From Parcubacteria group bacterium (lineage in GTDB: Bacteria; Patescibacteriota; Minisyncoccia; Phycocordibacterales; UBA2135), in NCBI GenBank assembly GCA_016180525.1, contig JACPBB010000003.1:38395-102394 (forward strand): a DNA stretch of 64,000 bases, written 5' to 3'. The translations under genes and the position numbers were made by a program. A model generated the notes under the pieces. The model was not told the origin of the DNA. It worked only from the letters and a program-made list of their open reading frames with translations, and ran no database searches. Shown one piece after another: positions 6,827 through 63,509 of this stretch (position 1 is its first letter; every line of letters starts with the position of its first letter).

Positions 6827-7514
6827 TCCGTTTAGGAAAAATAATAACTATTAAACGCAGTGCGAGAACTGCAATAATAAATAAAGCTGAAATTAAAGAA
6901 ATGGAAACAAAGCCATACAAGTAGCTTGTGCTTTCAAGCCACCCGCGAAAACCCATTGCAACCACGTGAAGCAGAACAAAGCTAAACGCAAGATACCCAA
7001 GCCGTTGAATTGTCTTCCATTGTTTGGGGTTCATCTGCGACGCGACTGCCGGAATAGACGTTACGGAAACAACTGAAAAAATAAACAGCGCGAGTGTCCC
7101 AAAGAGAGCAGATATTTCACCGGTAAAATTTAATTTTCCGCTCTCAAGAAAAAATTTTGGATAATACGCCGGTGAAAGAAGCGCGAGCGAAATAACGCCG
7201 TGAAGCGCGGCAATGCTGAATCCAAAGACGCCAAGGGGCTTGCGCAGATATAACTTTTGTTCAAATGTGCAAGGCCAAAAGCGCGCAAGTGGCCCGAGTA
7301 AAAATGAAAAGCCGATAAGAATAGTACTTGAGAGTGCCAGAACTTTGTTGGTAATAAACAAAGGAATCTGCTCAAGCGGCACATCGCGAAGTACATTATA
7401 TCGAACAAATGCGTACGCAAAAGAAATGACAAAAACGACGGCAAATATGATAACTGTGGTTTTCCATCCGTTAGGAGATGTTTGTTTTATTTCTTCCATC
7501 TTTAAATTATACAA
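6819..7514 (-). CDS. Polytopic membrane protein, ferric-reductase-like transmembrane domain (MsrQ-like) candidate
   Basis: About 6 TM helices with paired His in 'AALHGVISL' and 'LLHVVAMGF', consistent with heme-binding ferric reductase-type domains. It overlaps the end of the flavodoxin-like gene by 8 nt, suggesting a functional pair. Confidence 0.4.
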   Translation of the reverse strand: MYNLKMEEIKQTSPNGWKTTVIIFAVVFVISFAYAFVRYNVLRDVPLEQIPLFITNKVLALSSTILIGFSFLLGPLARFWPCTFEQKLYLRKPLGVFGFSIAALHGVISLALLSPAYYPKFFLESGKLNFTGEISALFGTLALFIFSVVSVTSIPAVASQMNPKQWKTIQRLGYLAFSFVLLHVVAMGFRGWLESTSYLYGFVSISLISALFIIAVLALRLIVIIFPKRSE

Positions 7515-7520
7515 TACTTT

Positions 7521-10058
7521 TTATGTTTTTAATCGCAGTGAATTTAAGACAACGCTTAGACTTGAAAATGCCATTGCCGCCGCGGCAAAAATAGGATTGA
7601 GCAAAATGCCAAAAAACGGATATAAAACGCCGGCGGCAACGGGAATAAACGCGATATTATAAAAGAATGCCCAAAACAAATTTTGCTTGATTATCCTCAT
7701 CGTCTTTTTTGAAAGTGCAATCACTTCGGGGATAAGCGTCAAGTCCCCCCTCATTAAGGTAATGCTTGCCGATTCCATCGCGATATCCGTCCCCTCACTC
7801 ATGGCGATCCCTATATGTGCTTGAGCAAGCGCGGGAGCGTCGTTGATTCCATCTCCGACCATCGCAACAATTTTACCAAGTGTTTGAAGTTCACGAACTT
7901 TTTCAGATTTTTTATGAGGCGCCACTTCGCTCATCACATTTTCTATGCCCACCTGTTTCGCAATTGCCTCAGCCGTTCTTTTATTATCTCCTGTGATCAT
8001 CCACACATCTATACCACTTTTTTTCAAAGCTTGTACTGCTTTAATTGACTCACCCTTCAACACATCGGCAACCGCAAGCGCGCCCTTGATGTGTTTATCA
8101 ACGACGAGAATCATTGCTGTCTTACCTTCTTTTTCAAGAGCCGTGATTTTGTCCTCATACAAAGAAATATCAAGTCCAATTTCTTGAATCAATATCCTGT
8201 TGCCCAGATATGCCTCAACTTTTTGAGATCCGACTTTTAAAAATCCCCGTAGACCCTGCCCTGAAATCGCCTTGAAATCACCGAGCGCATACAAGTCAAT
8301 TTTTTCTTTTTTTGCTTCTTCGATTATCGCAGTGTCAAGCGGATGTGATGACCTTTGGTTCAAACTTGCGGCATACTGCAATATCGCCTTTGCAAGCGGA
8401 TGTTCGGACCGCTGTTCCAAGGAAGCCGCGACGTGAAGCACTTCTTCTTTTTTTGTGTTATTAAAAGCAATAATATCAGTCAGTTGCGGTTTCCCTTGAG
8501 TGAGAGTTCCCGTTTTGTCCAAAATAACCGCGTTGATTTTACCCGCGATTTCAAGCGAGGCAGCATCTTTGATTAAAATTCCTTTTGATGCCGCGCTACC
8601 AGAGGAAACCATAATTGCCATTGGCGTCGCAAGGCCCAATGCGCATGGGCACGCGATGATAAGCACTGCTACAAGATTTATTAAAGCGAAATTAAAAGCA
8701 GGAGCGGGTCCAAAAAAGTACCACACGATAAAAGTAAGCACGGCCACTATCCCCACCATGGGAACAAAATAAGAAGAAACGAGGTCCGCTAAACGCTGAA
8801 TAGGTGCCTTTGATCCCTGCGCCTCCTCAACCATTTTTATTATTTGAGAGAGAACAGTGTCTTTTCCAATCCTCGTGGCTTGAAAAGTAAAAGTGCCAAA
8901 TTTATTTATCGTACTGCCGATAACAAGAGCGCCAACACTTTTATGCACGGGCATTGACTCTCCTGTTACCATTGATTCGTCAATTTCAGAGTCACCTTCA
9001 ATAATTTTTCCGTCAACGGGAATTTTCTCTCCCGGCCTCACGATTATTGCATCCCCAACCACAACATCAATAATAGGTATTTCAGTTTCTTTTTTACCTC
9101 GTATAACTATTGCCGTTTTTGGCTGAAGACCCATTAATTTTTTAATTGCTTCAGACGCTCTCCCCTTCATTAAAAGTTCAAAATATTTTCCTAGAAGTAT
9201 GAGCATGATAATTATCGCCGATGTGTCAAAATATATTTTTGGCTCAACTCCTCCTTGAGTGAAAAAATCTGGAAAAAGCATAACTGCGACACTATAGAAA
9301 TATGCCGCCAAAGTGCCAACGGCAATCAGTGTGTTCATGTCTGCAGTGCGATACTTTATGAGTAGTTTCAATCCGCTGTAAAACTGAAGTCCAACCCAAA
9401 ACTGAACAGGTGTGGTTAAGACAAAAAGTATCCAGTAATTGCTTAGAAATTCTGGCACAAATGTAAACCATTCAGGAAAACTGCCGAAAAATATAAAAAC
9501 CGAAAGAATGCCGCCGACAATGAGTTTGCGTCGCAAGGTTTTTGTCTGTTTTTCTCTTTCAATTTTCTCCTTATCCAACATTTCTTTTGCTTCTCCCTCC
9601 TCTTCAATTGGTTTATACCCAGCATCTGTAATAACTTCAAAAATCTTACTGATCTCAAGTTTTTGCGGATTAAAAACGACTTTTGCTCTTTGGTTTGAAA
9701 AATCCAGATCAGTGTTTTGTATACCCGGCAACTTCTTTAAAGCATTTTCAACAACCATCGCACAGTGTGGCGAGTCCATTCCTAAAATTTTCACTGATAT
9801 TGTTTGAAGACCCTTGCGAGAAGTTATTTTTTCTTTGGCAACCGGAGTAGGTATGTCCAGCTTATAGCCGACAGACTCAACTGCTTTTGCAAGGTTTGAT
9901 TCAGAAGCAACTCCTTCGTCAAACTCAACAAGCGCCGATTCTGACGCAAAATTAACCGCAGCAGAGTGTACACCCGCTGTTTTTAAAAGCACGCGTTCAA
10001 TGCTACCAGCGCATGAAGCACAGTGCATGCCTTTAATTTTAAAAGTTTTTTTAACCAT
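7521..10058 (-). CDS. copA: Copper-translocating P1B-type ATPase with two N-terminal heavy-metal-associated domains
   Basis: HMA motifs '[12 protein letters not shown]' and '[12 protein letters not shown]'; membrane 'CPC' motif '[13 protein letters not shown]'; phosphorylation site 'DKTGTLT'; hinge '[10 protein letters not shown]'. Confidence 0.9.
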
Positions 10059-42760: not shown

Positions 42761-43219
42761 TTATTGGGTATGCAGAAATTGTTTACTAAACTCCGCGCGG
42801 ATTGCGTCGCGAATGGCAAACAGTTTTTCTTCAGGAAGTTTCAGGTCGGGTTTTATTGGATAATTTTTCCCCCACTGCTCATCTACAAATGTAATGCCAA
42901 GATATGTCCGAGGAGATTTATATCGCGGAATAAAATGCATGTGCCCGTGTCCTTTGTGTTCACGAAACATGTTTCCGAGCCACGCGTAATTCATGTGGTC
43001 AGGTTGCCAGAGATTTCCAAGAACTTTTTCATACTCTTCGGCAATTCTTTTGAGCTCGTTTAATTCTTGAGGAGTTAATTGAGAAAACCTCTGCATTTCG
43101 CCAGGTCGAGAAAGCCACGCGTACGCGCGCCCCAAATAATACTGGTCGTCATGAAGAAAGAGCGTGAAGTGCTCATACTTCTTCAACACAAACGGCTCAT
43201 ACTGCGGCAAATAGGTCAT
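42761..43219 (-). CDS. HIT-family (histidine triad) hydrolase
   Basis: 'HKGHGHMHFIP' is the H-phi-H-phi-H-phi-phi histidine triad. Confidence 0.6.
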   Translation of the reverse strand: MTYLPQYEPFVLKKYEHFTLFLHDDQYYLGRAYAWLSRPGEMQRFSQLTPQELNELKRIAEEYEKVLGNLWQPDHMNYAWLGNMFREHKGHGHMHFIPRYKSPRTYLGITFVDEQWGKNYPIKPDLKLPEEKLFAIRDAIRAEFSKQFLHTQ

Positions 43220-43372
43220 GATTTAGTTTTTATCTTTGCGCTTCATTAGAGTTGGGGTTGAATCAGTGGTTCCAATAAAATAATAAATTGGTGTCAGGTA
43301 CTTTTTATTTTTTCTTAATTCAAAAATACTGTTTTTTAATGTTTATTTTATCCATTCACTAAATAAACTATC

Positions 43373-43696
43373 TCAAATACCAATTTCAATTTTCCACTCC
43401 ATTGGAATCAGGGTTAAGTTTATAGGATATTTAAAATCTGTAGATTGTTTCCAATCCGTAAGCTTTAATTTGAGTTCTTTGATAAGTTTGTCAGCATCTT
43501 TAATTTTCTGCGCGGACATTCTTACAAATATTTCCACAGGAGCAATTTTAACTTTTATATGAGCTGAATTGGTATATGTAAAAACATCTTCTATCCCCGT
43601 AACCTCGGAAACAATATCCCGAACAGCTTTTGATAGAGCTTGTATATCCCCTTCGGAGATCTGCTCATTGTCATATTCAATATTAATCATTGGCAT
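43373..43696 (-). CDS. Hypothetical small protein (possible tautomerase-like, N-terminal Met-Pro)
   Basis: Begins MPMINIEY...; Pro1 after Met removal is the hallmark of tautomerase superfamily members, but this is weak. Very low GC. Confidence 0.3.
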   Translation of the reverse strand: MPMINIEYDNEQISEGDIQALSKAVRDIVSEVTGIEDVFTYTNSAHIKVKIAPVEIFVRMSAQKIKDADKLIKELKLKLTDWKQSTDFKYPINLTLIPMEWKIEIGI

Positions 43697-43720
43697 AATA
43701 TGTGTATTAAAATTCTTATA

Positions 43721-43752
43721 AATTAATTCTCAAATACTGCTTCTATATTATT
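43721..43752. repeat. 32-nt direct repeat, copy 1 (5'-leader/promoter element of 43373..43696)
   Basis: ttaattctcaaatactgcttctatattatttc; 31/32 identical to 44719..44750. Confidence 0.6.
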
Positions 43753-44692
43753 TCTTTGATTTAAAAAGTTGTTTATTAAATTCTTCACGACCCATTGTGT
43801 TTAAAAATTTTATTTTTTCTTTTTCACTTTCAAAATCTCCTTCTTCTCCCCAGCTAATTCCCAGAAGAATAATGAGTTTTAATGCATCAAAAATATGCAG
43901 CCGTTCTTCTGTGTCAAGCACACGATATTTTATATACTCCTCTATGATAAAAGCGGCTTCATATTCCTTAAACCCCCTCTTTGGAGGGAATGCCCACCAA
44001 TATATAAGTCCTGCGACATCATAGATAAGGTAAAAATAAAAACTCATATCAAAATCAAGAACGGCAACAATATCTTTACCTTTAAACAAAAAGTTGCTGT
44101 AATTTAAATCGGCGTGACAAATACCTTTCGGCATACTATTCGGCAACTGTATATCTTCCAATTCATTTTTAAGCCATTGTTCGCGCTTCGGTAAACTTTC
44201 TGTTCGATTCTGTTTGCAATATATTCTCAAACAATAATCAGCATCAAATGGCTCTCTGTCTTTAAAAAATTCAAGTTCATTATTTTTAGTGATGTTGTGC
44301 AGTTGTGCTATTAGTTTTATAACTTCAGCAATTTCTGTTTTGTTAAACGCGTCATTTGGATTTTGGCCGTGCGTGCCTTCAATAAATGCCGTAATCATGT
44401 ACGGCTTTTCTTTATATATTCCAAAAAAATCTCCAGTGCGATTTTTGATTATAGAAAGAACCGGGTAGTTGCTATCTTGCAAAAAATTAATCAGTTGCAC
44501 TTCAAATGCAACGTGTTTTTTTGTTCTGTTTTCGTAGTATCGTAAAACAAATTTTCCTTCGGTGGTTTTTAGAAGAACAGTTGTCTGTCCTGCCCCGCTC
44601 CCAAATGTTTCATAGCCGCAATATTCTCCCACGTCATAGTTTGACAGAATTTCAAGAAAATCATTTTCATTTATGGTAGTTTGTACAGGCAT
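43748..44692 (-). CDS. Aminoglycoside/choline-kinase-type phosphotransferase (APH family)
   Basis: Catalytic loop 'ICHADLNYSNFLF' (H-x-D-x-x-x-x-N) and 'VLDFDMSF' (D-F-D); 314 aa; very low GC. Confidence 0.65.
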   Translation of the reverse strand: MPVQTTINENDFLEILSNYDVGEYCGYETFGSGAGQTTVLLKTTEGKFVLRYYENRTKKHVAFEVQLINFLQDSNYPVLSIIKNRTGDFFGIYKEKPYMITAFIEGTHGQNPNDAFNKTEIAEVIKLIAQLHNITKNNELEFFKDREPFDADYCLRIYCKQNRTESLPKREQWLKNELEDIQLPNSMPKGICHADLNYSNFLFKGKDIVAVLDFDMSFYFYLIYDVAGLIYWWAFPPKRGFKEYEAAFIIEEYIKYRVLDTEERLHIFDALKLIILLGISWGEEGDFESEKEKIKFLNTMGREEFNKQLFKSKK

Positions 44693-44718
44693 AGAAATCG
44701 CTGTCAGATACTTTTTTA

Positions 44719-44750
44719 TTAATTCCCAAATACTGCTTCTATATTATTTC
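44719..44750. repeat. 32-nt direct repeat, copy 2 (5'-leader/promoter element of the APH-like gene)
   Basis: ttaattcccaaatactgcttctatattatttc. Confidence 0.6.
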
Positions 44751-44759
44751 CCTTACTGA

Positions 44760-44789
44760 CATTCCAACATTCTCAAGAATGTTGGAATG
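44760..44789. repeat. Palindromic element, member 2 of the 'AACATTCCAA' family
   Basis: cattccaacattct-ca-agaatgttggaatg (14-bp perfect stem). Confidence 0.6.
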
Positions 44790-44792
44790 TTG

Positions 44793-45128
44793 TTATGTTA
44801 TTTTTCCTCTTTGGAAAAAATTTATGAGGGTTTTATTGGCAAATTTTTTAACATCCTCCGGGGGAGGTTCATAATAAGAAACTTCTACTCTTCCATTTCT
44901 AAAATAAACATAGCCTTGCAATAATATATCACTGAGCTCAATGCCCATTGCGTGGCGTACAAGCGCATGTCCTTCGTGAGAAAGATATAACTTAAAATTT
45001 TTTGTTCCTACAAGCGTAATATCATTTCCGTTTGAAAATCTTTCTTGAACGATTTTCCTGGAAGACCCGACCCCGAATTTAATTTCAAATTCCGGAACAT
45101 ATTCTTTGCTTTCAAAATTTTTTTCCAT
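44793..45128 (-). CDS. Hypothetical protein
   Basis: 111 aa, no motif, low GC. Confidence 0.3.
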   Translation of the reverse strand: MEKNFESKEYVPEFEIKFGVGSSRKIVQERFSNGNDITLVGTKNFKLYLSHEGHALVRHAMGIELSDILLQGYVYFRNGRVEVSYYEPPPEDVKKFANKTLINFFQRGKIT

Positions 45129-45271
45129 TACTTTGAGAATATATTAAAAAAATTATTTATGCAAAATGTTAAATTCCTCTCAATGAAAAAAGGGGCTCAC
45201 ATGTTTTAAATAGTTGACAAATAAACTATAATATATTATAAATTAATTTAGAGGTTCAAAACTACTTCAAG

Positions 45272-46528
45272 GTGCGGCATATGCGGTGGTTTGATGTCAT
45301 CGGACTCATTCTCACTATTTCGGCATTCTTCAGTTTCTTGAATTATAAGTTCTTTAAACTACCCAAAACCGTGGGGCTCATGATTATCTCTCTCGGTTCC
45401 GCATTCTGTCTTATGGGACTTGAAATGATGGGAATTGGTTCAACCGTAAAATTAGCAGAAGCTCTGCACTCCATTAACTTTAGTGAAACACTACTACAAG
45501 GAGTCTTATGTTTCCTGCTATTCGCCGGAGCCCTTCATATTGATATTGGAGATTTTCTTGAACAAAAATGGTCAATTGGTTTTCTCGCCTCTCTGGGTGT
45601 TGTCATATCCGCATTCATTATTGGAGTAGGCGCGTATGTATTGTTTCCGTTATTTGGATTTACACTACCCTTTTTGGTCTGCTTCCTTTTCGGAGCGCTC
45701 ATTTCTCCAACTGACCCAGTCGCGACTCTCGCCATTCTCAAAAACTCAAAAGCCCCAACAAGTATTAAAATGAAAATCGCGGGAGAATCGCTTTTAAATG
45801 ATGGCATGGCAGTTGTGTTGTTCGTGGTGGCGCTTACTCTTCTCAATAATGAAAAAAGCGTATCTTCAATGGATGTCGTAGTGATGTTTGTGCAAGAAGT
45901 ACTCGGGGGTATCGCGTATGGACTTGCTATTGGCTATATTGCCTACGAACTTATTCGGCGCGTTGATGACTATAATGTGGAAATATTACTCTCGCTTTCT
46001 CTCGTGACGGGGGGCTATGCGCTCGCTTCAGTGCTTCATGTTTCAGGACCCCTTGCAATGGCAGTTGCCGGACTCTTTATAGGAAACCATGCCCGAAAAT
46101 ATGGAATGTCCGAAAAAACTCGCAAACATCTTGATATTTTCTGGAATGTCATTGACGATGTTCTCAATGTAATATTGTTTGTCCTTGTTGGACTTGAGGC
46201 GCTACTCATCAACGTAGAGCATGAGTACGCGCTCGCGGGACTTTTTATAATTCCACTCGTACTCTGTGCGCGCTTTATAAGTGTCTCGGCGGGAGCTGTA
46301 CTTTTGCGGCCGCTCAAGCCCTTTAGCCCAAATTCTATCCCCTTGCTAACCTGGGGAGGACTACGCGGCGGCATTTCATTTGCTTTAGCGCTTTCCTTGC
46401 CATATGGGGAAGGACGAGACGCGCTCATTCTTATTACATATATGGTTGTCGTGTTTTCCGTTATTGCGCAAGGGCTCACTATGAATAAAATTTTTGCCTA
46501 CCTTGAAGGCAAAAATAGTGTGTCGTAA
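45272..46528 (+). CDS. Na+/H+ antiporter, CPA1 (NhaP-type) family
   Basis: 12-13 TM helices, 'FGALISPTDPVATLAIL' (the conserved CPA1 TDP region), 418 aa. Confidence 0.8.
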   Translation: MRHMRWFDVIGLILTISAFFSFLNYKFFKLPKTVGLMIISLGSAFCLMGLEMMGIGSTVKLAEALHSINFSETLLQGVLCFLLFAGALHIDIGDFLEQKWSIGFLASLGVVISAFIIGVGAYVLFPLFGFTLPFLVCFLFGALISPTDPVATLAILKNSKAPTSIKMKIAGESLLNDGMAVVLFVVALTLLNNEKSVSSMDVVVMFVQEVLGGIAYGLAIGYIAYELIRRVDDYNVEILLSLSLVTGGYALASVLHVSGPLAMAVAGLFIGNHARKYGMSEKTRKHLDIFWNVIDDVLNVILFVLVGLEALLINVEHEYALAGLFIIPLVLCARFISVSAGAVLLRPLKPFSPNSIPLLTWGGLRGGISFALALSLPYGEGRDALILITYMVVVFSVIAQGLTMNKIFAYLEGKNSVS

Positions 46529-50055: not shown

Positions 50056-50418
50056 CTACTCGTCACAAGCCAAGCCGTTCTGATCTTTATCTAAATAAAA
50101 AATATCGGTCCCAAGCACCTCTACTTTTCCAGTATAATTTGGTCCGTCTCCACCGCTTCCGTCGCAATCATAATCACCAATGTCGTCTAGGAGACAGCCG
50201 GAGTAATTAGGGTTGCATAGGCGCACTCCGCCAGAATTTGTTGAGCTCTGCGAAGAGCGTCGCGGAAGCAAAATTCTCTCATCTTGGACCGGTTTAACGG
50301 TATTTGACTGCTCCTCCTGCGGGAGTTCAGGCGGCTTGCTTAAAATCACCATAATAGCGAACAACATACCGGCAAGGCCTAAACTAAATAAAATTATGAG
50401 AACTTGATTTTTAAACAT
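50056..50418 (-). CDS. Secreted protein with Excalibur-like calcium-binding motif
   Basis: Signal anchor plus 'DYDCDGSGGDG' and 'DKDQNGLACDE' (D-x-D-x-D-G-x-x-C-E). Confidence 0.45.
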   Translation of the reverse strand: MFKNQVLIILFSLGLAGMLFAIMVILSKPPELPQEEQSNTVKPVQDERILLPRRSSQSSTNSGGVRLCNPNYSGCLLDDIGDYDCDGSGGDGPNYTGKVEVLGTDIFYLDKDQNGLACDE

Positions 50419-50778: not shown

Positions 50779-50781
50779 AAC

Positions 50782-50851
50782 TGCCGGCCAGGGACTCGAA
50801 CCCCAATACCCGCCTCCAAAGGGCGGTGTCCTACCATTAGACGAGCCGGCA
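50782..50851 (-). tRNA. tRNA-Gln (anticodon TTG)
   Basis: Hand-folded: acceptor TGCCGGC/GCCGGCA with U1:A72, U8, D-arm GTCT-AATGGTA-GGAC, anticodon arm CCGCC-CTTTGGA-GGCGG, T-arm TGGGG-TTCGAGT-CCCTG; no encoded CCA. Confidence 0.7.
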
Positions 50852-50867
50852 ATAAGATTGTCGATAT

Positions 50868-51896: not shown

Positions 51897-52022
51897 TACG
51901 CACTCCTTTATTTAGACAAATCTGTTTTCTATATTCATTAATACAAAAAAGAACCCACAAAGTCAATAAAAAACGGGTCTTCCAGAGGAAGACCCGTACT
52001 AAAAAGAACTATAAAGAACTAT

Positions 52023-53696
52023 TTATTCGCGTGCCCAGATGGAACCCAATGCTTTTTGAAGTTCCTCCGGCCACTTTTGCGGTTCCAAGGCGTTTACCCA
52101 GACCACCGTAGAACGGTGAATATCGGTAATCGCGATTTCAGGAACGGTTCCTGAAACGACCCCTGTTGCGGTACTGCCGCCTTTTTGTTTTTGTGTCACG
52201 ACCGTCGTCATCCAGAAGAACCGTTCTTTTGAGACGCCGTTTACATCCGGAAGCACCCGAATGTAGGGACGATGTTCAACGGGCGTGTTTTGCGTCCAAT
52301 CGTAATTTTTCTTTGAATTGCGCACATAGTCGGCAACTGCGCTCACTCCAATCGCGGACTCACCGTGTTTGAAGTGCCGGTACGCATATTGCGGACCAAC
52401 GCCGTCTGCCGAGACAAAGAAGCTTGTTGAAAGCCCCTGCTTGCCCGTGTCATACGGCTCAAGCGCAAAGTACTGATAGAGTTTCCCCGCCTCCCCTTTC
52501 TTCATGTTGAAGTAGAGAGTAAAGGGCTGTTGATTCATGTCGTCGGGCAAGTCAGCGATCCGCAGATCCCCGACACGATTACCCGGCAAGGGTCCCAGAA
52601 AACCTTCCTGGAACCGCAAGCTTTTTGCCATGAACCGTGACACCGCATACGGCATCACATTCTGCCCTTTCAGAAACTCATGTTTGCCAATCTCTTCAGG
52701 TGGAATCCATTCCCCGCATCCTTTAAGAATGTATGGAATGAAATCAAGCGCCGCTTCCCACGAGTAGTCGTGGTCACTTTGCCTGATTACCTGAACGCCG
52801 CCAAATTCCGGCCAAGGAAAGAAGATGCCTTCCCACTTTATGAGTGTGACAACTTGAACCCACTTGCCGGCATCATCTTTCATGAAGAGGATGTTGCCCG
52901 GCTCGTAGTTTAAGAATCGCCACAGGCCAAATGAACGGCGTGTGCATGTGGTGGCATTTCGTGAAAACGGAAGCTGCTCACCTGCGGTAAACGAGACACC
53001 GTCCCGATGCTTTTTTGAAAGCTCCGGAGAAGCAGATGTCGCAGGCAAATGCACCACTTCCTGAACCTTTCCTAAAAACCGCTGCACAAAGTATGTCGGT
53101 GCAATCGCTGAGGTCCATTCATACCGATCTCCCGTACGCACCATGTTCGGCGGCGTTGCCACCTCCGTTTCATTGATGCGTTCGTTTACGAGCGTGTGGA
53201 CACTGTTTAACGGCAGTATCCGCTCGTAATCAGTAATCGGCAATGTCTGAAGATCAACAATCTTTAAAGTTTCATACCTCCAGTATGAAGTAATGTAATG
53301 ATTTACCTCCTTACCCAAGACGACGATGGCAACGCCTGCGCCACATGCAAGGAGTGACACGAATGCCCTCCAGCGCGCCGAGCGTTTTCTCACAATCATC
53401 CAGGCAAGAGACATGACAATGAGCACCGTAAGCAAGCTTCCGAGATATATTCTTCCGGTAAGCGCAAACGGCTGAACAAAATTGCGTTCTACATACATGC
53501 CACCGACAACAAATGCCGACAGAATGAATGTGAGAATAGGACGATTTAGAAAAGCCCTACCCAGTGCACGAATCGGACCAAATATCATATTCCAGGGAGA
53601 CCATGACGCTTCACGCCATGCCCCCTTTTCCGCTGCGGATATTGTTTCTTTTGCGTCCACCTGCTCACCTTGCGGTTCAAGCGGAGTGTCGTTCAT
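52023..53696 (-). CDS. Operon gene 6/6: membrane protein (3 N-terminal TM) with large about 400-aa C-terminal domain, unknown function
   Basis: ATG overlaps the upstream stop as TAATG; GC about 50%. Confidence 0.4.
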   Translation of the reverse strand: MNDTPLEPQGEQVDAKETISAAEKGAWREASWSPWNMIFGPIRALGRAFLNRPILTFILSAFVVGGMYVERNFVQPFALTGRIYLGSLLTVLIVMSLAWMIVRKRSARWRAFVSLLACGAGVAIVVLGKEVNHYITSYWRYETLKIVDLQTLPITDYERILPLNSVHTLVNERINETEVATPPNMVRTGDRYEWTSAIAPTYFVQRFLGKVQEVVHLPATSASPELSKKHRDGVSFTAGEQLPFSRNATTCTRRSFGLWRFLNYEPGNILFMKDDAGKWVQVVTLIKWEGIFFPWPEFGGVQVIRQSDHDYSWEAALDFIPYILKGCGEWIPPEEIGKHEFLKGQNVMPYAVSRFMAKSLRFQEGFLGPLPGNRVGDLRIADLPDDMNQQPFTLYFNMKKGEAGKLYQYFALEPYDTGKQGLSTSFFVSADGVGPQYAYRHFKHGESAIGVSAVADYVRNSKKNYDWTQNTPVEHRPYIRVLPDVNGVSKERFFWMTTVVTQKQKGGSTATGVVSGTVPEIAITDIHRSTVVWVNALEPQKWPEELQKALGSIWARE

Positions 53697-54376
53697 TACA
53701 GTCTCCCTCTTTTTGTGAAGTTGGCAATGATTTCCTGCGCACTCGACTCTATCTTTATCTCTGCAGGAGCCAAGGTTGCCTTCAGCGTCTCTGCCGGAAT
53801 TTCTGGTTTAGACACCACTACAGGAGTTTCCTCTCGGTGTACGCTGAAGACATATTTTTTCCAGAACGAAAGGAGCCGCGATGGAGCTGAAGTGAGAAGC
53901 CCTTTTGAGACAGCCACAAGCTCTTCGCCTTTCTCTTCCGCTTCTTTCTTTACCGCGTTTAAGTCAATGTGTTCTGCCCTTTCAGTCGCCGTATCAATTA
54001 CCTCAAACACCTCTTCTCTTCGCTGAAACAGGCGATAGAAGGGATTTCCAAGGGCAAGTCCGATAAGCATCGCCGGCACCTCAACAAGCCAGAGGATAAT
54101 TTCTGCCAATAGATTTATATCATGTCCCCAGATCATGTAGATGCTCTGGGCAGTTGAAATCAGAAACGCAATTGTCGCTTTTCGGTGAGTCTTTTGGTTG
54201 TACATGAACCCCCGCACGACCTCTGGCGGTATGGGCTCCTTGTGACAAATATCATAGAGCCACCGGTATACATGAATGCCATACGTTCTGTCAAGGAAAT
54301 ACCACGCAACTCCCAAAATCATGTAAAGCACGATGCATGTGAGCGCGTAATTCCATACGTTGAGAACTGCCTGCAT
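53696..54376 (-). CDS. Operon gene 5/6: membrane protein (4 TM) with cytoplasmic C-terminal region, unknown function
   Basis: Start chosen at MQAVLNV (AGGAGGG RBS 8 nt upstream) rather than the longer ORF to 54448. Confidence 0.4.
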   Translation of the reverse strand: MQAVLNVWNYALTCIVLYMILGVAWYFLDRTYGIHVYRWLYDICHKEPIPPEVVRGFMYNQKTHRKATIAFLISTAQSIYMIWGHDINLLAEIILWLVEVPAMLIGLALGNPFYRLFQRREEVFEVIDTATERAEHIDLNAVKKEAEEKGEELVAVSKGLLTSAPSRLLSFWKKYVFSVHREETPVVVSKPEIPAETLKATLAPAEIKIESSAQEIIANFTKRGRL

Positions 54377-54393
54377 GGTCGGTCCCTCCTTTC

Positions 54394-55650
54394 CTAGGGT
54401 TGGAGCATGAGCGGAGTGTAGTTTGCCGCAAGATATCCGGCAACCCACTCACGCTTTGCTTTTCCGAATTTTTTATAACAATTCAGGAAAAAGTTTTTAT
54501 CGTGGGTGTAAAGCTCAAGAATATTTCTCGGCTCACATCTGGTCAGCAATATCCACAGTACATCCTGCGTTGCTGGATGCAGATGTGATGCCGGCTCAGC
54601 AAGAAAGAACGAGAGTTCATCCGAGAGCTCCGGCAGAGTTTTCTTTGCAAGAGCCATCGCGATAAATCTTTCCAGCTCAAAGTACATTTCAGGAATATTT
54701 TTCTTATGTTTTCCGACAAGCTGCTTTCGTTGCGTTGACGTAAGATTATCCCAGTCAATATTTTTTTCAAGATCAAGTAGAGAATGCGCCAGCAAAACCT
54801 CTTTTTTCCGAATGAGCAAATCCGGCGTTTCCTTATATCGATCGGGTATAGAGATCCACCCCGCGTCCCAGAGGAAACGGAGCAGTCCATAGTCCTTCTC
54901 GTAGAGGAAAAACAGAATCGTGCCATCCGGTACCGAAGTCTCGCTATAGAGAGCTTCATCTTCAAGAATAAGTACATCATTTCCATCTGCTCCGCGGAGC
55001 ACTGCTGCCCCGCCGAAAGCAGTCGTGTAGAAATCCTGAAAGGCGCCAAAGTCTGACATCCGCTCGATAACCACTCGACGCCTTCTCAAATCGCCATGAA
55101 TCCGTGCGTGTTCGCGGATTTTTTCCTGAACTTCCGAATTCAGACAATTTGTTCCTTCAAAAAAAGCATCAATGAGCTTTTGTTGTTCAATCGCCGCTTT
55201 AGAAAGCTCGCCCGCGTCTATTTTGGGCACGATTGAATTCAGAAGGAGAAGATCAGCCGGACTTTCAAAACTTGCAAGCTGGTTGTCAAAATCAATGACA
55301 AGTCCGTGTGTTGCGGTAATATCCGCGATCTCGCGAAAATTACCGTCAAATACGGAACGCAACATCCGGCGCATCCATGAGTATGTCGGAAAATATACCG
55401 GCTTTTTGAATTGCGCTTGAGATACGATAATCGCCATCGGATTGGCCACATCGTGGCAGAGATAAAAGGTGTTTCCTTTTTCCTCCGCCACTTCAGGGCT
55501 CCATCCCGCTCCATCAATATTAATCCGCTTCAGTCTTGTCGGCTCAATGCCCGCAATGCGCAAACATTCGTTATAGCGGTCCACAAGCTCCCTGCTGTCA
55601 AGCGGAACAAGTCCCGCATAGAGGAGCTTGTTGCCTATCAACTGTTTCAT
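54394..55650 (-). CDS. Operon gene 4/6: 418-aa soluble protein, unknown function
   Basis: Start overlaps the AAA gene's stop (ATGA); no motif. Confidence 0.4.
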   Translation of the reverse strand: MKQLIGNKLLYAGLVPLDSRELVDRYNECLRIAGIEPTRLKRINIDGAGWSPEVAEEKGNTFYLCHDVANPMAIIVSQAQFKKPVYFPTYSWMRRMLRSVFDGNFREIADITATHGLVIDFDNQLASFESPADLLLLNSIVPKIDAGELSKAAIEQQKLIDAFFEGTNCLNSEVQEKIREHARIHGDLRRRRVVIERMSDFGAFQDFYTTAFGGAAVLRGADGNDVLILEDEALYSETSVPDGTILFFLYEKDYGLLRFLWDAGWISIPDRYKETPDLLIRKKEVLLAHSLLDLEKNIDWDNLTSTQRKQLVGKHKKNIPEMYFELERFIAMALAKKTLPELSDELSFFLAEPASHLHPATQDVLWILLTRCEPRNILELYTHDKNFFLNCYKKFGKAKREWVAGYLAANYTPLMLQP

Positions 55651-57659
55651 TCCCTTCCTCCTACGTGTTTTGAGGCTGGTCTCTTATGCACTTCGCCATA
55701 GCGAGACGTAGCATCATCTCTTACTTTCATTTGTTTTACGGTATCTTCCACTTCGCGATTATACGACGCGTCAAGGATTGAAACCATGGTATTGAGATAT
55801 TTGAATGTCTCTTCATAGAGCAACTCATGGAACTTAAGTCCTCCCATGTGTTCTAACATCAATTTCACAATCATATCTTTCTTTGTATCATACGGATGAA
55901 CAACGAAGCTTTCACGCTTCGTGAGCCATTCTTCCGGAAAATCAAAATCCAGAAGCCGCGAACCGACAGCAACCTGAATGTTGCGTACGTCCCGCGAGGA
56001 GAAAAACGGATATTCCTGCTGCAGCTTTACAAAAAGCGCGGCATAGAAATCATGTTCATGCGGATTGTGCTCACTCTTAACCTCATCAATAATGCGAGCC
56101 AATTTACGGTCTCGCACGGTTTCGAGCGCTTCAACCGTCCGTTCAACCGTATTTTTGAATTTCTGGCCGGAAAGATATTCGTAATCACCCGGCCATTCTA
56201 AGTTAACAATGTTACTCTTATATTTATCATACCCACCTGTCCACAGTCTCATTTGGTCAAGAAAGTCCGCGCGTGTCCGGGCTCCGTCAACATCCATGCG
56301 ACCCAAAACACGCGAGAGCACGGCTTTATCCACCTGCTCCGGAATGTTCGTGGCGAACATGATGATGACATTGCCTCGATTAATCGCGGAAGCTCCCTCG
56401 GTTCTCCGAAGAAAGACCCCGATTATTTCACGCACACCCGATGAAACGCCTTGCATGCTCCTATCCTGAAAACTGTTTTCCGCGTCATCAACCGGCGCGA
56501 GCAATAGCTCATGCGAGTTAGAGAGTGGCGCCATCCAGTTTTCCATATTTTCGGCCGAACCGCCCTGAAACGTCGAAACAATAGCGTTCGGGAACGGATG
56601 CGGACGAAATGGAATATTAAGCGCATCACAGTAATCTTTTACCATCGTGAGAATCGCCGCGATGAGAAGAGTTTTACCGGTACCCGGAATGCCTTTCATG
56701 AGGTAAATCCACGGGAAACCGCCAAGCTCAACCATGGGGTTCATTTTCTTTTCAAAATCATAGGCAATGAGCGCTTGCGCAAGCCGATACGCGTATAGTT
56801 TCGCGATGCGGTTGCCCACAATCGTGTTGATATCAACACGTTTAAATTCAACGGCAACATGAGCACCAAAGGCGTCTCCATGGAAGCCATTTACAGAAAA
56901 CGTCGTTTTCTCAAGACGATAGTTGCGCTCTGTATACTGTTCCGTGTGCTTTAGAGATTGCGATTTACCTTTGATTTCCTCAAGTACTGCCGCAAAGTAA
57001 AGCTCGGTCATCTTTCGAAAATCAACACCTGTGAGCACTCCTCCACTTTTTAGGTACGAACCTAAGTGGAAGAGCGTGCATTGCATTGCCGAGAGCTGGC
57101 CCGAAAGTGAAATCATCTCGGGCAACCCGCGGAATGAAAGTGCTGATTCGGATATATCCGCTTCCTGAGAACTCTGTTGAAGTTTCCATACGATGAAGTA
57201 TGAGAGCACGAACGCCGTGATGGCCGCGTGCGTCTCCGACTTATCGCGGAATTCAACTTGCTCCATTTGCGTAGTCAGCTGATTCTTACTGTTTCTTTCA
57301 CGAAGTGTCTCGAGCCCGGATACTTTCGCATACAAGCTCGCAACATGAAGTGCGATGCACAATCCTGTGCGCATTACGTTAAGCGTCTGATTTACGTGCT
57401 CATTCATGAGTTCATCGCCGCCGCCAATGGGGCGTGCGACATCAAGGATTGAAATAGTTTCGTTTCGTGAACTATCCCGTGAAGCTGGTTTCCATCCTAT
57501 TGGCTTCTGTGGTGATTTTACCTCAAGCTCACTCTGAAGTTCAGCGACACTGCGACGCGGGTCCCATTGAACCGACTTCAGCAGATTTGTCGCTTGCTTT
57601 AAGTAATGCGCGAGTTGTTCTCGCGTGACGGGAATTTCAGAAGCGGTGTTAGCCGACAT
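55647..57659 (-). CDS. Operon gene 3/6: AAA+ ATPase (classic AAA clade) with about 330-aa N-terminal domain of unknown function
   Basis: Walker A 'GIPGTGKTLLIAA'; sensor-1 region 'VIIMFATNIPEQVDKAVLSRVLGRMDV' (the ATN-x-P-x-x-hD-x-A-h-x-R-x-GR pattern of classic AAA). Start set at MSANTASE, with AGGAGGG 7 nt upstream. Confidence 0.6.
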   Translation of the reverse strand: MSANTASEIPVTREQLAHYLKQATNLLKSVQWDPRRSVAELQSELEVKSPQKPIGWKPASRDSSRNETISILDVARPIGGGDELMNEHVNQTLNVMRTGLCIALHVASLYAKVSGLETLRERNSKNQLTTQMEQVEFRDKSETHAAITAFVLSYFIVWKLQQSSQEADISESALSFRGLPEMISLSGQLSAMQCTLFHLGSYLKSGGVLTGVDFRKMTELYFAAVLEEIKGKSQSLKHTEQYTERNYRLEKTTFSVNGFHGDAFGAHVAVEFKRVDINTIVGNRIAKLYAYRLAQALIAYDFEKKMNPMVELGGFPWIYLMKGIPGTGKTLLIAAILTMVKDYCDALNIPFRPHPFPNAIVSTFQGGSAENMENWMAPLSNSHELLLAPVDDAENSFQDRSMQGVSSGVREIIGVFLRRTEGASAINRGNVIIMFATNIPEQVDKAVLSRVLGRMDVDGARTRADFLDQMRLWTGGYDKYKSNIVNLEWPGDYEYLSGQKFKNTVERTVEALETVRDRKLARIIDEVKSEHNPHEHDFYAALFVKLQQEYPFFSSRDVRNIQVAVGSRLLDFDFPEEWLTKRESFVVHPYDTKKDMIVKLMLEHMGGLKFHELLYEETFKYLNTMVSILDASYNREVEDTVKQMKVRDDATSRYGEVHKRPASKHVGGRE

Positions 57660-58827
57660 GTTCGACCCTCCTTTCTTCCTGGTCGTATGCCAAAAACTGC
57701 ACATCTCCGGAGAATTCCGGAAATAGCGCGCGATCTTCGGCGGTTAAGTGTTGGCGAAACCGGTGCGGCATGAGCGCGAAACGAGTCATAGATGTTGACC
57801 CGCGTCTCACAAGCTCGCGATCCGTCTTTGGCACGTGGAAAATTTGTCGTGCCTTCTTTTTTCCAAGCGAGAACAACGAGTCAGGCATTTTTTCCTTTGT
57901 TGACTGCACAATTTCAGTCTCAAACAGTAGCACAAAATCTTCTGGCAAGAGATGCGTGTCGTCAAAACAATTCTGCATCCTTACCAGAAAGCTTTTCTGA
58001 TTTGTTTCAACACTGGAAAAAAGCGGCGAATAAACGGGGCCGATTCTGTTTCGCTTTATGACTATCGGATAGATATTCGGCAAAATTTCGTCAAGTCGAA
58101 TACCGACAGCGCGAAGCTCCTCTGGAGCTCGCTCACCGATGTGCTCAACGGCCTCCAGGAGACCAATGAGTTCAGGGCCCCCCTCTTCAAGTGGTAGAGT
58201 TCCGTTTTCCATCTCATGCTCAAAAAGCATAAGATAGACATACGGCAAGTTGGTTGCCGAATCATAGCATGCCCAAGAAAAATAGTACGCTTTCCGATTT
58301 TTATTCCGAATTGGAACATCTTCTGGAGCGCGATATACTTTTCCCGGAGTGAATTTGAAGAACATGGTTCGTAGATCAAGCATTTCAAGATATGTCCGGT
58401 CTGCACACTGCCACAGTAAATCAGCGAGTTTCTGATTATTTAATTTCTGTTTCTCCGGAGATGCTTCCTGTATCATCAATATATTGAGTATTTTTTCCTT
58501 CAATTTTTGAGAAGGTAGGAATTTTGGCAACCGTTCATCCCGCGTAGACAAGTCAGCGAACAGCTGACTGATATCCATCCACATCGGAAACCCCGAATCC
58601 GCGATCTCGAGCTCGTCCGTAGATTTCCAGCTGGGGCTATGCACATGTTTGAGTTGCAGCGCCTCTACTGTTTTTTGCAATTTACCCATATAAATCGCCA
58701 TTGATTCAAATTCAGAACTTTTGACGTTGCCATAATATATTCCGAGCATAGAAAATGCGCGGGCGAGCAAGCGTGTATACGCACTATAATCAATGCGTTG
58801 CGCAGTAGTTTTCTCTCGAGCCGTCAT
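57649..58827 (-). CDS. Operon gene 2/6: 392-aa soluble protein, unknown function
   Basis: Overlaps the AAA gene start by 11 nt; no motif. Confidence 0.4.
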   Translation of the reverse strand: MTAREKTTAQRIDYSAYTRLLARAFSMLGIYYGNVKSSEFESMAIYMGKLQKTVEALQLKHVHSPSWKSTDELEIADSGFPMWMDISQLFADLSTRDERLPKFLPSQKLKEKILNILMIQEASPEKQKLNNQKLADLLWQCADRTYLEMLDLRTMFFKFTPGKVYRAPEDVPIRNKNRKAYYFSWACYDSATNLPYVYLMLFEHEMENGTLPLEEGGPELIGLLEAVEHIGERAPEELRAVGIRLDEILPNIYPIVIKRNRIGPVYSPLFSSVETNQKSFLVRMQNCFDDTHLLPEDFVLLFETEIVQSTKEKMPDSLFSLGKKKARQIFHVPKTDRELVRRGSTSMTRFALMPHRFRQHLTAEDRALFPEFSGDVQFLAYDQEERRVEHVG

Positions 58828-58906
58828 TTGTCTCCTCCGTGTTTGGGGTTAGTAGAAAAACAGGGGCCCGAGAGCCCCTGTGAAGACGCGTTGAGAGCAA
58901 TATGCA

Positions 58907-60232
58907 TCACGCCGCGTCCACGGTCTTACGATGGCTTGCGACCGAATCGTAGCTGGTATCACGACCATATCCATTGCTGAACTGTTCAAGTATGTCATCG
59001 AGCCTTTTTTCAAAATTTGCTCGCGCCTCAGCACGGGCCTCAGAAATTTCTTCAAGCGTTTTAAGATCTTTTGGAGCGCGCTCTATCCGATCAAGGATTG
59101 CTTTTTGGCCTCCCGTAATCATCTTGGCCATAGCTTCCATGCCCTTCATATCTACGGTAGTCGCGACGTCATCGATCATCTTCATCGCTTCTTGGTCAGC
59201 CGTCGCCTGCATGGCGCCAATCTGGCTGTCAAAAATAGTTTCGCGCTCCTTCACACCCATCTGCAAGGTTGCAACCCATGCATGATGGTGCTCCAGGAAC
59301 TGACGCTGTCCAGCAACGTGAGTTTTGTAAATCTCAATGAATCGCTCTTGCTCCTGCAAAACCATAAAATTCTTGTTTTGCTCTTCCCGCGCCTTATCGC
59401 GCTCCTTGGTTACTTCGGAGATTTCAGTTTCAAGACGAGCGGCCTCTTCGGTTCCCTGCTGAACTTCATTTCGCTGAGCGACGAGAGTCGCGAGCTGTGC
59501 TTCGTGATTTGTAAGATTTTTTGTAAGAACTTCAATGTTTGCTACCAGCTCTTCGCGCTTTGCCAGCCCTTCCACAAGAGCAGCATCCACCGACTGGAGA
59601 TCCTCTTCAATGAAGCTAACGCGCCCGACGGCATTGTCAATCGCAATCTGCGTGCATGCCTGAATCCTCTGCATCGAGGTGCTAAGGTCTGCATTGATGA
59701 GCCGCTCGCGCTGCTTCGCCGAAGCAATCTCTTGTGCGGCTTTCATGCCGGCTTCCGCGCTCTCGATATCCTTCTTCGCTTTGGCAATCGCCTTGTCGCG
59801 TCTTCCGAAGAAAATGTTGAACATCTTCTTTTCCGCCTTAGCAAGATCTGATTTTGCGCGGCCAAACATCGCCTCCGCGTCATCAACAATCTTCTGCTCG
59901 TCCGGATTTAACTTTTCAAGGGCGTCAATCGACACGCCAATTTCCTTATACTGCTCTCCAAGCGCAATCATTACTCGAGCGATATCTTTTGTCGTCGCAT
60001 CAACGGCAGTCCGCGCAGACTTAAGGTCCGCAGCAAGAATACCAGCGCGATCCACGTCTCCAGTGCTGAGTGCTTCCTGAATATCTTTGGCAATGGTTTC
60101 AAAATGTTCAACAGCCTGAGCGGCCTTTTCGGACCGCTCTTGCATCTCTTTTGCCTGATGATCAGCCATATCGGCAATCATTCGAGGGTCTTTCGCGCGA
60201 ACCTGTGCGGTTCGAGTACCTTTCTGTACCAT
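58907..60232 (-). CDS. Operon gene 1/6: about 440-aa all-alpha coiled-coil protein (Ala/Lys/Glu-rich), unknown function
   Basis: Start set at ATG (MVQKGTRTAQ, RBS AAAGGAAGG 5 nt upstream). The supplied ORF extends to a TTG at 60283. The heptad-rich sequence suggests PspA/ESCRT-III-like or TelA-like helical scaffolds, which is inference. Confidence 0.45.
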   Translation of the reverse strand: MVQKGTRTAQVRAKDPRMIADMADHQAKEMQERSEKAAQAVEHFETIAKDIQEALSTGDVDRAGILAADLKSARTAVDATTKDIARVMIALGEQYKEIGVSIDALEKLNPDEQKIVDDAEAMFGRAKSDLAKAEKKMFNIFFGRRDKAIAKAKKDIESAEAGMKAAQEIASAKQRERLINADLSTSMQRIQACTQIAIDNAVGRVSFIEEDLQSVDAALVEGLAKREELVANIEVLTKNLTNHEAQLATLVAQRNEVQQGTEEAARLETEISEVTKERDKAREEQNKNFMVLQEQERFIEIYKTHVAGQRQFLEHHHAWVATLQMGVKERETIFDSQIGAMQATADQEAMKMIDDVATTVDMKGMEAMAKMITGGQKAILDRIERAPKDLKTLEEISEARAEARANFEKRLDDILEQFSNGYGRDTSYDSVASHRKTVDAA

Positions 60233-60270
60233 GGCGTCCTTCCTTTGTTTGCCTTGGGGTTGGTGGGTAT

Positions 60271-60289
60271 GTCCTTTTGTCAAAGGACA
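60271..60289 (-). promoter_or_regulatory. Palindromic site containing a TTGACA hexamer upstream of the six-gene operon (operator/-35 candidate)
   Basis: gtccttt-tgtca-aaggac; the minus strand reads ...cctttGACAaaaggac. No convincing -10 was seen. Confidence 0.25.
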
Positions 60290-60406
60290 AGAGTACAGTA
60301 AATAGGGCTTAAAAACCCTATTTAAAGCTCCGTAACTCTAATAACCTTCTACACTATTTTAACAAAAAAGTCAAGTGTTTTGGGCATGCGCAATACATAT
60401 CAATAT

Positions 60407-62904: not shown

Positions 62905-63183
62905 TTATTTTATTACAGTACAGATAGTCGGTTGAGGAATCTCCAGACCAAGTTCTTTGGCGGCACTAATCCATTCTTTGATTGCTTCTTCTCCCATGGA
63001 AATGGCTTCTGCCTTTGTTTTTCCATCCGCCATACAGCCGGGCAATTCAGGAACTGTAACTACAAAACATCCATCAGCCTCACTCCATTCAACAAGCATT
63101 GAATACCGCGAGAATTCTTTTGCCATGACCAGTATTCCTTTCTTAAACTTCCGAATTTCTGGATAAAGAATATCAATTTCCAT
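62905..63183 (-). CDS. HicB-like (UPF0150) antitoxin-family protein, apparently orphan
   Basis: 'YSMLVEWSEADGCFVVTVPELPGCMADGKTKAEAISMGEEAIKEWI' matches the HicB_lk/UPF0150 core. No HicA-like ORF is adjacent on either side. Confidence 0.5.
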   Translation of the reverse strand: MEIDILYPEIRKFKKGILVMAKEFSRYSMLVEWSEADGCFVVTVPELPGCMADGKTKAEAISMGEEAIKEWISAAKELGLEIPQPTICTVIK

Positions 63184-63252: not shown

Positions 63253-63329
63253 AAAGACAGGATTGGCGGCCCCGGCAGGACTCGAACCTGCAACCTGGAG
63301 ATTAGAAATCTCCCGCTCTATCCAGTTGA
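63253..63329 (-). tRNA. tRNA-Arg (anticodon TCT), CCA encoded
   Basis: Hand-folded: GGCCTCG-TA-GCTC-AACTGGATA-GAGC-G-GGAGA-TTTCTAA-TCTCC-AGGTT-GCAGG-TTCGAGT-CCTGC-CGGGGCC-G-CCA. Confidence 0.8.
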
Positions 63330-63416
63330 GCTACGAGGCCGCTGTATAACAAAAACAGAAAAAAGAACAATTTTCTCCTCCTTTCCGTTCAAATCCCAGT
63401 AAAAAAACAGAGGGGG

Positions 63417-63509
63417 TGGTAGGCCTGGAGGGATTCGAACCCCCAACCGTGCGCCGATCTAGCGCTCATGGATCATAAATCCACCGCTCTGCCGTTGAGC
63501 TACAGGCCC
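63417..63509 (-). tRNA. Atypical 93-nt tRNA: canonical acceptor/D/T arms and CCA, anticodon loop TTTATGA (anticodon TAT, Ile-AUA-type) plus a 23-nt variable-region insertion
   Basis: GGGCCTG-TA-GCTC-AACGGCA-GAGC-G-GTGGA-TTTATGA-TCCAT-[GAGCGCTAGATCGGCGCACGGTT]-GGGGG-TTCGAAT-CCCTC-CAGGCCT-A-CCA. Confidence 0.5.

Follow-up and report, generated by a model that had tools for sequence, protein, structure and literature searches.

What does a genome-reduced bacterium use a six-gene operon for when only one of the six products is of an understood kind? The operon lies on the minus strand of a 64,000-nt stretch of a Parcubacteria group bacterium genome (contig JACPBB010000003.1, positions 38,395 to 102,394; hereafter, the window), a member of the candidate phyla radiation (CPR). 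In transcription order, its genes encode a helical protein (g1), a soluble protein (g2), an AAA+ ATPase (g3), a DUF6638 protein (g4), and two membrane proteins (g5 and g6). An earlier note on this DNA could fit the combination to no named defence, secretion, or remodelling system, and our domain, PADLOC, PDB, and fold searches also gave none. Classic-clade AAA+ unfoldases power the proteasome, p97, NSF, Vps4, and katanin; to our knowledge, bacteria are thought to have few of them besides FtsH and the proteasomal ATPases. The operon presents a bacterial classic-clade AAA+ protein with four to five dedicated partners, conserved in hosts as different as rhizobia, vibrios, marine flavobacteria, and ultra-small CPR bacteria. 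As a system, this module appears to be new: it is widespread and co-inherited, it has neither functional annotation nor literature, and the ATPase alone is understood.

A four-gene core and an exchangeable membrane module

The DUF6638 domain of g4 served as a marker of the module, and a relative is encoded in at least 537 species-representative genomes. We fetched 80 loci and searched them with profiles for g1 to g6. All six genes lay colinear on one strand in 66 of the 80, a strongly positive outcome for the synteny test that the earlier note had proposed; eight further loci were truncated at contig ends. In the remaining six, only g1 to g4 were found, although the sequence extended downstream for more than 7 kb; these loci are from Desulfonema magnum, three Trueperaceae, SAR324, and a flavobacterial metagenome-assembled genome (MAG). 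The complete order was first met in Ulvibacter antarcticus, and hosts include Patescibacteria, Bacteroidota, Desulfobacterota, Gammaproteobacteria, Bdellovibrionota, Deinococcota, and SAR324, with many cultured Bacteroidota among them (Winogradskyella, Psychroserpens, Polaribacter, Aquimarina, and others).

More distant branches were found in rhizobia and on Vibrio megaplasmids of ∼0.9 Mb, and the core could be followed down to ∼25% identity in Sinorhizobium meliloti and Vibrio. S. meliloti has homologues of g1 (probability 97.9%), g2 (99.8%), the AAA protein, and the DUF6638 protein. In rhizobia, the place of g5 and g6 is taken by a DUF2333 membrane protein, whose gene begins 3 nt past that for DUF6638. 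This protein (PF10095) was ruled out as a homologue of g6, since hhalign gave a probability of 6% and aligned the transmembrane segment only. The Vibrio megaplasmid carries the four-gene core alone, without g5 or g6. The invariant unit is thus the soluble core of g1, g2, g3, and g4, colinear across at least seven phyla, and because of the core-only loci and the DUF2333 swap in rhizobia, the evolutionary unit is this core plus an exchangeable membrane module. No further neighbouring gene recurred across phyla, flanks being conserved within families only. Within Flavobacteriaceae, different genera share these flanks, a sign that the operon has long been inherited vertically at one fixed site of the chromosome. 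The over-long variants of g1, g2, and g6 carried no informative domains.

Several loci vary in other ways. In Trueperaceae, an extra open reading frame (ORF) of ∼166 aa without a family match stands between g1 and g2 (8353-8853 of locus L008; also in L024 and L029), and a conserved divergent pair upstream encodes a 796-aa TPR protein and an S8 peptidase. A gene for a NudK-like GDP-mannose pyrophosphatase (∼195 aa; NF011585, E=8e-65) lies on the same strand between g3 and g4 in 16 flavobacterial loci (L036, L039, L044, L047, L048, L052, L054, L058, and eight more). In Pseudomonas fluorescens, a DUF2333 gene adjoins that of a Nudix hydrolase (PMC5256989). Selfish elements have repeatedly entered the operon, mostly between g3 and g4 (L009 and L033, at 12160-12980 of L009; L090, at 7060-8805; and several flavobacterial loci). 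They include an IS200-type Y1 transposase, a DUF559 endonuclease with ISRm16 (S. meliloti Ak57), small genes of the four-helix-bundle (23S-IVS) type, and a GIY-YIG-like ORF; the intergenic joints of the operon evidently tolerate insertion. Locus L090 (CP090106.1) and hits H2-H5 are filed in PLSDB as plasmids of 3.5-4.6 Mb, one of them as "pSymB," and they carry trpE, tdk, fhs, and choline-transporter genes. These records resemble main chromosomes, so the rhizobial copies should not be called plasmid-borne.

The ATPase and its partner proteins

A classic AAA module with GIPGTGKT, ATN, and GR motifs had been read in g3, and it is there: PF00004 matched residues 335-467 of the 685-aa ORF with 38.1 bits (cut-off 21.2), and by its sequence g3 is a classic-clade AAA+ protein. 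A family-specific N-domain of ∼300 aa is followed by a single ATPase module and a C-terminal region of ∼200 aa. Searched against the PDB, the g3 profile matched Cdc48/p97, VAT, NVL, AFG2, Rpt4, Pch2, and Vps4 over positions 313-450 only, at E=1.6e-8 or weaker. A direct hhalign comparison placed g3 267-459 on VPS4A 116-293 with a probability of 96%. In this alignment, the pore loop 1 of g3 (STFQGGSAE, near-invariant or invariant in the family) falls on SKWLGESE of VPS4A, and sensor 1, likewise invariant or nearly so, reads ATNIP in both. The Walker A motif GIPGTGKT is conserved throughout the family; among the arginines of the second region of homology (SRH), R450 is invariant, and R454 is conserved in at least 90%. 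The Walker B motif is unusual, reading P[IV]DDAEN in 67 of 78 orthologues (PVDDAEN in the window), with Asp in place of the catalytic Glu and an invariant Glu two residues on. No Vps4-type MIT domain was found at the sequence level, the VPS4A alignment being limited to the ATPase core; neither the N-domain nor the C-terminal region gained a match in this alignment or in the PDB profile search. There are more than 1,000 homologues of g3, and nearly all of the best 120 listed are full-length.

None of the five other proteins matched anything of known function in Pfam, NCBIfam, PADLOC, PHROGs, or PDB sequences. The first, g1, has no transmembrane segment, consists to 57% of the residues AEKLQRM, and matched generic coiled coils only (Pfam, NCBIfam, and PDB profile searches); a profile search found it in 82 of 89 loci. 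A motif [YF]G[IF]D near its C terminus is conserved (YGRD in the window copy), and in Bacteroidota, the protein has a disordered C-terminal extension ending in DDLL[SG]. The earlier note had thought the gene combination weakly reminiscent of PspA/Vipp1 (ESCRT-III) with Vps4 or of TelA/Ter modules, and at the sequence level these likenesses did not hold up. At E<=1 in Pfam, none of the matches listed for 24 g1 orthologues was to PspA_IM30 (PF04012), Snf7 (PF03357), or TelA (PF05816). The sequence comparisons ruled g1 out as a PspA, Vipp1, or Snf7 protein, since no such PDB chain matched at E<=10 although the library holds many. The hhalign probabilities were 0.4% against Escherichia coli PspA and 0.1% against yeast Snf7 (both sequences validated against the PDB library).

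The g2 protein matched nothing in Pfam, NCBIfam, PADLOC, PHROG, or PDB. Its family is closed, with 223 clusters at 50% identity among 1.84 billion representatives, and its members are all stand-alone proteins of ∼350-410 aa. Comparison ruled out g2 and g4 as paralogues. In g4, DUF6638 (PF20343) covers residues 11-412 of 418 (122.1 bits versus 27), and all 92 of 92 g4 homologues carry it. The predicted model of g4 (pLDDT, the predicted local distance difference test score, 96) has an N-terminal α/β domain and a C-terminal helical domain. Neither this model nor that of g6 (pLDDT 93) found a credible structural neighbour, and as far as prediction goes, both appear to be folds without known relatives.

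The two membrane proteins had been expected to carry large non-cytoplasmic domains. This agrees with the predicted topology of g6, with the N terminus inside, an amphipathic helix, three transmembrane helices, and then an extracytoplasmic domain of 428 aa. That domain is of the α/β kind and rich in Trp, and many of its Pro, Gly, Trp, and acidic residues are invariant. For g5, the expectation failed: it is predicted to have its N terminus outside, three transmembrane helices, and its C terminus inside, so that its soluble tail would be cytoplasmic (hydropathy and the positive-inside rule). The tail is a low-complexity Pro/Glu/Lys/Ser linker with a short conserved basic peptide at its end, KSARERLKDKGLL in Flavobacteriaceae and D[PW]+xxhxx[FY] in most other lineages. 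Profile iteration recovered g5 in 76 of 89 loci; no family matched it in Pfam, PADLOC, NCBIfam, or PHROGs.

Relation to known systems and candidate functions

Membership of the operon in the ESCRT-III/Vps4, Psp, or TelA systems is not supported at the sequence level, given the negative tests of g1 (for PspA and Snf7, in Pfam, PDB profiles, and hhalign; for TelA, in Pfam). The likenesses are nevertheless instructive. As in archaeal CdvB/CdvC and eukaryotic Snf7/Vps4, a single-module classic-clade AAA+ protein with pore loop and SRH stands beside a helical protein, the flexible linkers and short C-terminal peptides of g1 and g5 recall recruitment of MIT-interacting motifs (MIMs) by MIT domains, and the operon's action is probably membrane-proximal. 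Unlike those systems, g3 lacks an MIT domain, g1 at 441 aa has no similarity to Snf7 or PspA, the tail peptides of g1 and g5 deviate from the MIM consensus, and g2, g4, g5, and g6 have no ESCRT counterparts. With the Psp/Vipp1 systems (PspA with PspBC, LiaIH), the operon shares a soluble helical protein and small membrane proteins that vary by lineage, and a role in envelope maintenance is plausible; however, it has no PF04012 match, no PspB, PspC, or PspF, and no Toastrack domain. PspA loci sometimes include AAA+ ATPases (PMC11237479), but the published types, which have two domains or are fused to a β-propeller, differ from g3.

Machines of the Cdc48/p97/VAT type with Ufd1-Npl4 or p47, Pex1/6, and Msp1 provide the best matches to the g3 core (E=1.6e-8 to 1e-5) and likewise combine a ring unfoldase, dedicated adaptors, and a membrane anchor. 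In contrast to them, g3 has one AAA module rather than tandem D1-D2, a Walker B of DDAE, and an N-domain in which neither a double-psi barrel nor any other known N-domain was detected; by sequence, no solved structure is related to g2 or g4, and for g4 the same is true of the fold. TelA is an all-helical protein of ∼400 aa linked to membrane stress. The resemblance of g1 to it is superficial, and the inspected loci contain no TerB, TerC, or TerD genes.

Full-text literature searches found no mention of DUF6638 or PF20343, and descriptive keywords and PF10095 gave nothing relevant; DUF2333 was mentioned once, as a neighbouring gene without annotation. Comparative-genomics papers on the ESCRT and PSP systems report associations with AAA+ proteins, but the present module is not among them. 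A binding fragment of ChvI, the regulator of an envelope-stress two-component system, was reported inside S. meliloti SMc02733 at 2.587 Mb (PMC3687685). Judging by gene order, SMc02733 may belong to the operon in its rhizobial form.

Our preferred reading, to which we give a probability of about one in three (0.35), is that the operon is a copy of a widespread, uncharacterised, membrane-tethered AAA+ machine that remodels the g1 scaffold or serves envelope maintenance. The conserved pore loop and arginine fingers suggest a ring that would thread and unfold a protein substrate by means of its invariant aromatic loop. The most probable substrate or scaffold would be g1, which is set off from g2 to g6 by an attenuator-like hairpin and so is probably made in excess, is all-helical, and ends flexibly in a short peptide that would serve docking. 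The g3 ring could then build or dismantle an oligomeric g1 assembly at the inner face of the cytoplasmic membrane. Translational coupling ties both g2 and g4 to g3, and they are its likely adaptors. With its tail peptide, g5 might bring the soluble components to the membrane; through its external domain, g6 (or DUF2333 in rhizobia) might link them to the condition of the envelope. In its logic, such a machine resembles ESCRT-III/Vps4 or PspA-type envelope maintenance, although the parts are not homologous. This reading is supported by the co-inheritance and coupling of the genes, by the predicted topology of g5 and g6, by a housekeeping-like behaviour, with conserved flavobacterial flanks and a tree that matches taxonomy in Bacteroidota, and by the lack of the module in phages, viral contigs, PADLOC, and PHROGs.

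Some observations weigh against it. No similarity of g1 to any known membrane-remodelling polymer was detectable; several lineages have the core without g5 and g6, so that the target could lie away from the membrane; the Asp in Walker B means that ATP turnover may be slow or regulatory; and patchy distribution with repeated horizontal transfer would suit accessory functions such as defence equally well. A wider proposal, to which we give a slightly lower probability, is that the module represents an independently evolved, bacteria-wide class of AAA+ scaffold- or membrane-remodelling systems. Such a class would combine a helical polymer (g1), adaptors of unseen fold (g2 and DUF6638), and exchangeable trans-envelope sensors (g5/g6 or DUF2333), and it would spread horizontally, even into minimal CPR genomes.

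Three other functions deserve comparison. The AAA+ protein might push a substrate, possibly g1, through a channel formed by g5 and g6, or pull damaged membrane or periplasmic proteins out, as do Msp1, Bcs1, and Cdc48 in endoplasmic-reticulum-associated degradation. Such translocation or extraction would make use of the intact threading pore loop of a classic-clade ATPase, of membrane partners encoded in cis by overlapping genes, of the large external domain of g6, and of g1 as a presumably abundant helical protein with a flexible, tag-like C-terminal peptide. We nonetheless consider it unlikely, because the core persists without a membrane partner in cis in Trueperaceae, Desulfonema, SAR324, and Vibrio, and rhizobia have an unrelated single membrane protein. 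Moreover, g5 and g6 together offer some six transmembrane helices without similarity to known channels, and g1 lacks both a signal and a hydrophobic segment for insertion. The same core-only architectures, in four unrelated lineages, together with the exchangeable membrane partner and the lack of transmembrane segments in g1, g2, and g4, would suit a purely cytoplasmic machine. The target of such a machine would be soluble, for example the ribosome, a nucleoprotein complex, or an assembly of storage or cytoskeletal proteins, and g5 and g6 would be a lineage-specific add-on for localisation or regulation. This function is improbable: ∼90% of complete loci have g5/g6 directly coupled to g4, and rhizobia fill the g5/g6 slot with a different membrane protein, which speaks for selection to keep a connection to the membrane.

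A role in anti-phage defence or abortive infection, in which the AAA+ protein with g2 and g4 would sense infection and g5/g6 or g1 would disrupt the membrane, appears no more probable than the cytoplasmic one. The operon does look the part, being a multi-gene unit with an NTPase and membrane proteins, patchily distributed across phyla by repeated horizontal transfer and atypical in GC in its CPR hosts; it occurs on a Vibrio megaplasmid, selfish elements are often found in or beside it, and PADLOC reports a weak likeness to the AAA modules of TRIP13 and IetA (E ∼0.01-0.02). However, the PADLOC-DB v2.0.0 matches were all sub-threshold and confined to the AAA module or coiled coils (best E=0.014), with none for g2, g5, or g6. 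The non-ATPase proteins match no PADLOC model, and with no system's hidden Markov model reached, a known defence system is ruled out for this database. Effector domains, such as those of a nuclease, NADase, protease, or pore, are not recognisable in the proteins, and the flanks inspected contained no defence genes. Unlike defence islands, the operon keeps its chromosomal neighbourhood over many flavobacterial genera, with a tree that follows taxonomy. Its sequences are highly conserved, and neither phages nor viral contigs carry the module. PHROGs likewise returned nothing past the generic AAA module, and a phage origin was ruled out, as DUF6638 occurs in no phage genome and in none of 2.9 million viral contigs (IMG/VR).

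Knowledge of the substrate would reveal a bacterial process, or else a principle of defence or secretion, that is new, and it would explain why genome-reduced CPR bacteria repeatedly import and keep 8 kb for the module. Cultured, tractable hosts exist in S. meliloti, Vibrio, and Flavobacteriaceae, which makes the question directly testable.

Operon layout, composition, and surroundings

All six ORFs that had been proposed were present with their proposed sizes (Table 1), and identical contigs from several groundwater metagenomes carry independent gene calls of the same six lengths. Inspection of the junctions bore out the tight packing described before. The g2/g3 overlap is 11 nt (ATGTCGGCTAA); g3 and g4 meet in ATGA, the g4 start overlapping the g3 stop; the TAG of g4 is followed by 17 nt with AGGAGGG before g5; and g5 and g6 share 1 nt in TAATG. 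The earlier view of one coupled operon needs a single amendment. The genes are co-transcribed and for the most part translationally coupled, but g1 is separated from g2 by a gap of 79 nt and is not coupled to it. That the operon is one co-transcribed, largely translationally coupled unit is supported.

Table 1. Genes and regulatory elements of the operon, in positions of the window
Feature	Position	Strand	Description
g1	58907-60232	minus	441 aa from ATG; acidic, all-helical/coiled-coil; first gene of the core
g2	57649-58827	minus	392 aa; soluble; unannotated closed family
g3	55647-57659	minus	670 aa; classic-clade AAA+ ATPase
g4	54394-55650	minus	418 aa; DUF6638 protein
g5	53696-54376	minus	226 aa; small membrane protein
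g6	52023-53696	minus	557 aa; membrane protein with extracytoplasmic domain
Leader/promoter region of the operon	60233-60406	minus	Two stable hairpins/palindromes and a Shine-Dalgarno sequence
Terminator-like/attenuator hairpin in the g1-g2 gap	58860-58881	minus	Fold computation and sequence reading
Intrinsic terminator of the operon	51973-51997	minus	Fold computation and sequence reading

The g1-g2 gap holds a hairpin and then a ribosome-binding site of g2's own, GGAGGAG. In the hairpin, a 9-bp stem with six GC pairs precedes UUUUUCU (−16.5 kcal/mol, z=−2.4). In 22 of 75 loci, including most of the CPR-type loci, a hairpin with a T-run lies 3′ of g1, and the sequences of these hairpins are unrelated. 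The operon ends 25 nt past the g6 stop in a terminator with an 11-bp stem, seven GC pairs, and UUUUUU (z=−5.1); none of 200 shuffles folded equally well. Upstream of g1, the leader RNA folds with z=−4.6 and contains a hairpin with 12-nt arms at 60299-60324. The palindrome around TTGACA noted earlier is present as TGTCCTTT-N4-AAAGGACA at 60270-60289, and a Shine-Dalgarno sequence, AAGGAAGGA, stands ∼4 nt upstream of the g1 ATG. As the palindrome occurs only once within the window, it was ruled out as a shared operator; no riboswitch or known RNA was found in the leader, which matched no Rfam family. No σ70 consensus promoter was called in the leader.

A raised GC content had led to the suggestion of horizontal acquisition, and both the observation and the suggestion are borne out by the composition. 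The operon has 48.4% GC compared with 41.1% for the remaining window; it is the most GC-rich 8.2-kb stretch (all 8.2-kb segments: mean 0.42, SD 0.023) and the strongest tetranucleotide outlier. The excess resides in the third codon positions (GC3), at 0.48-0.54 in the operon vs. 0.35-0.40 in obg, dnaX, and adjacent ORFs. At other CPR loci, the GC of the operon exceeds that of its flanks by 3-9 points vs. ∼0-2 points in Flavobacteria. When g3 was placed in a neighbour-joining tree, the clades of Bacteroidota roughly matched taxonomy; the CPR copies are polyphyletic, mixed among Desulfobacterota, Deinococcota, and Bdellovibrionota. Since GC and GC3 excess, tetranucleotide deviation, and polyphyletic CPR copies all agree, it is well supported, as judged from composition and phylogeny, that the operon was acquired horizontally in the present CPR genome. 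A surveyed locus, L012, is 100% identical and places the window in Candidatus Wildermuthbacteria (Parcubacteria). The islet at 43-45 kb, for which ∼27% GC had been given, measures 29-36% (300-nt segments, 43200-45300), compared with ∼41% for the entire window.

One pair of loci stands out in the survey: the AAA proteins of L013 (a Candidatus Buchananbacteria MAG) and L014 (a MAG labelled Gammaproteobacteria) are 80% identical, and their flanks have a GC of 0.38 and 0.34, respectively. This suggests that L014 is mis-binned or reflects a very recent transfer.

The flanking tRNA genes are where they had been seen (Gln, 50780-50852; Arg, 63264-63340; Ile, 63417-63509), and the statement that no integrase is near stands for 49-64 kb. 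Two marks of a genomic island, an integrase and insertion directly at a tRNA, are thus missing; the tRNAs lie 1.2 kb and 3 kb from the operon, with dnaX and other genes in between. The tRNA-Ile gene (anticodon TAT, minus strand) is 93 nt long. The Rfam tRNA model, of 71 positions, matched it end to end over 90 nt, so that ∼19 nt are an insertion, either an intron or an arm of unusual length. A 92-aa ORF (62905-63183, minus), situated between dnaX and the two neighbouring tRNA genes, carries a HicB-like antitoxin domain (PF15919) in the precomputed annotation of an identical contig. On the other side of the operon, a 120-aa ORF (50056-50418, minus) has an N-terminal transmembrane segment and a Cys/Asp-rich end, DYDCDGSGGDGPNYTG...DKDQNGLACDE, which by eye resembles an Excalibur-type calcium-binding motif.

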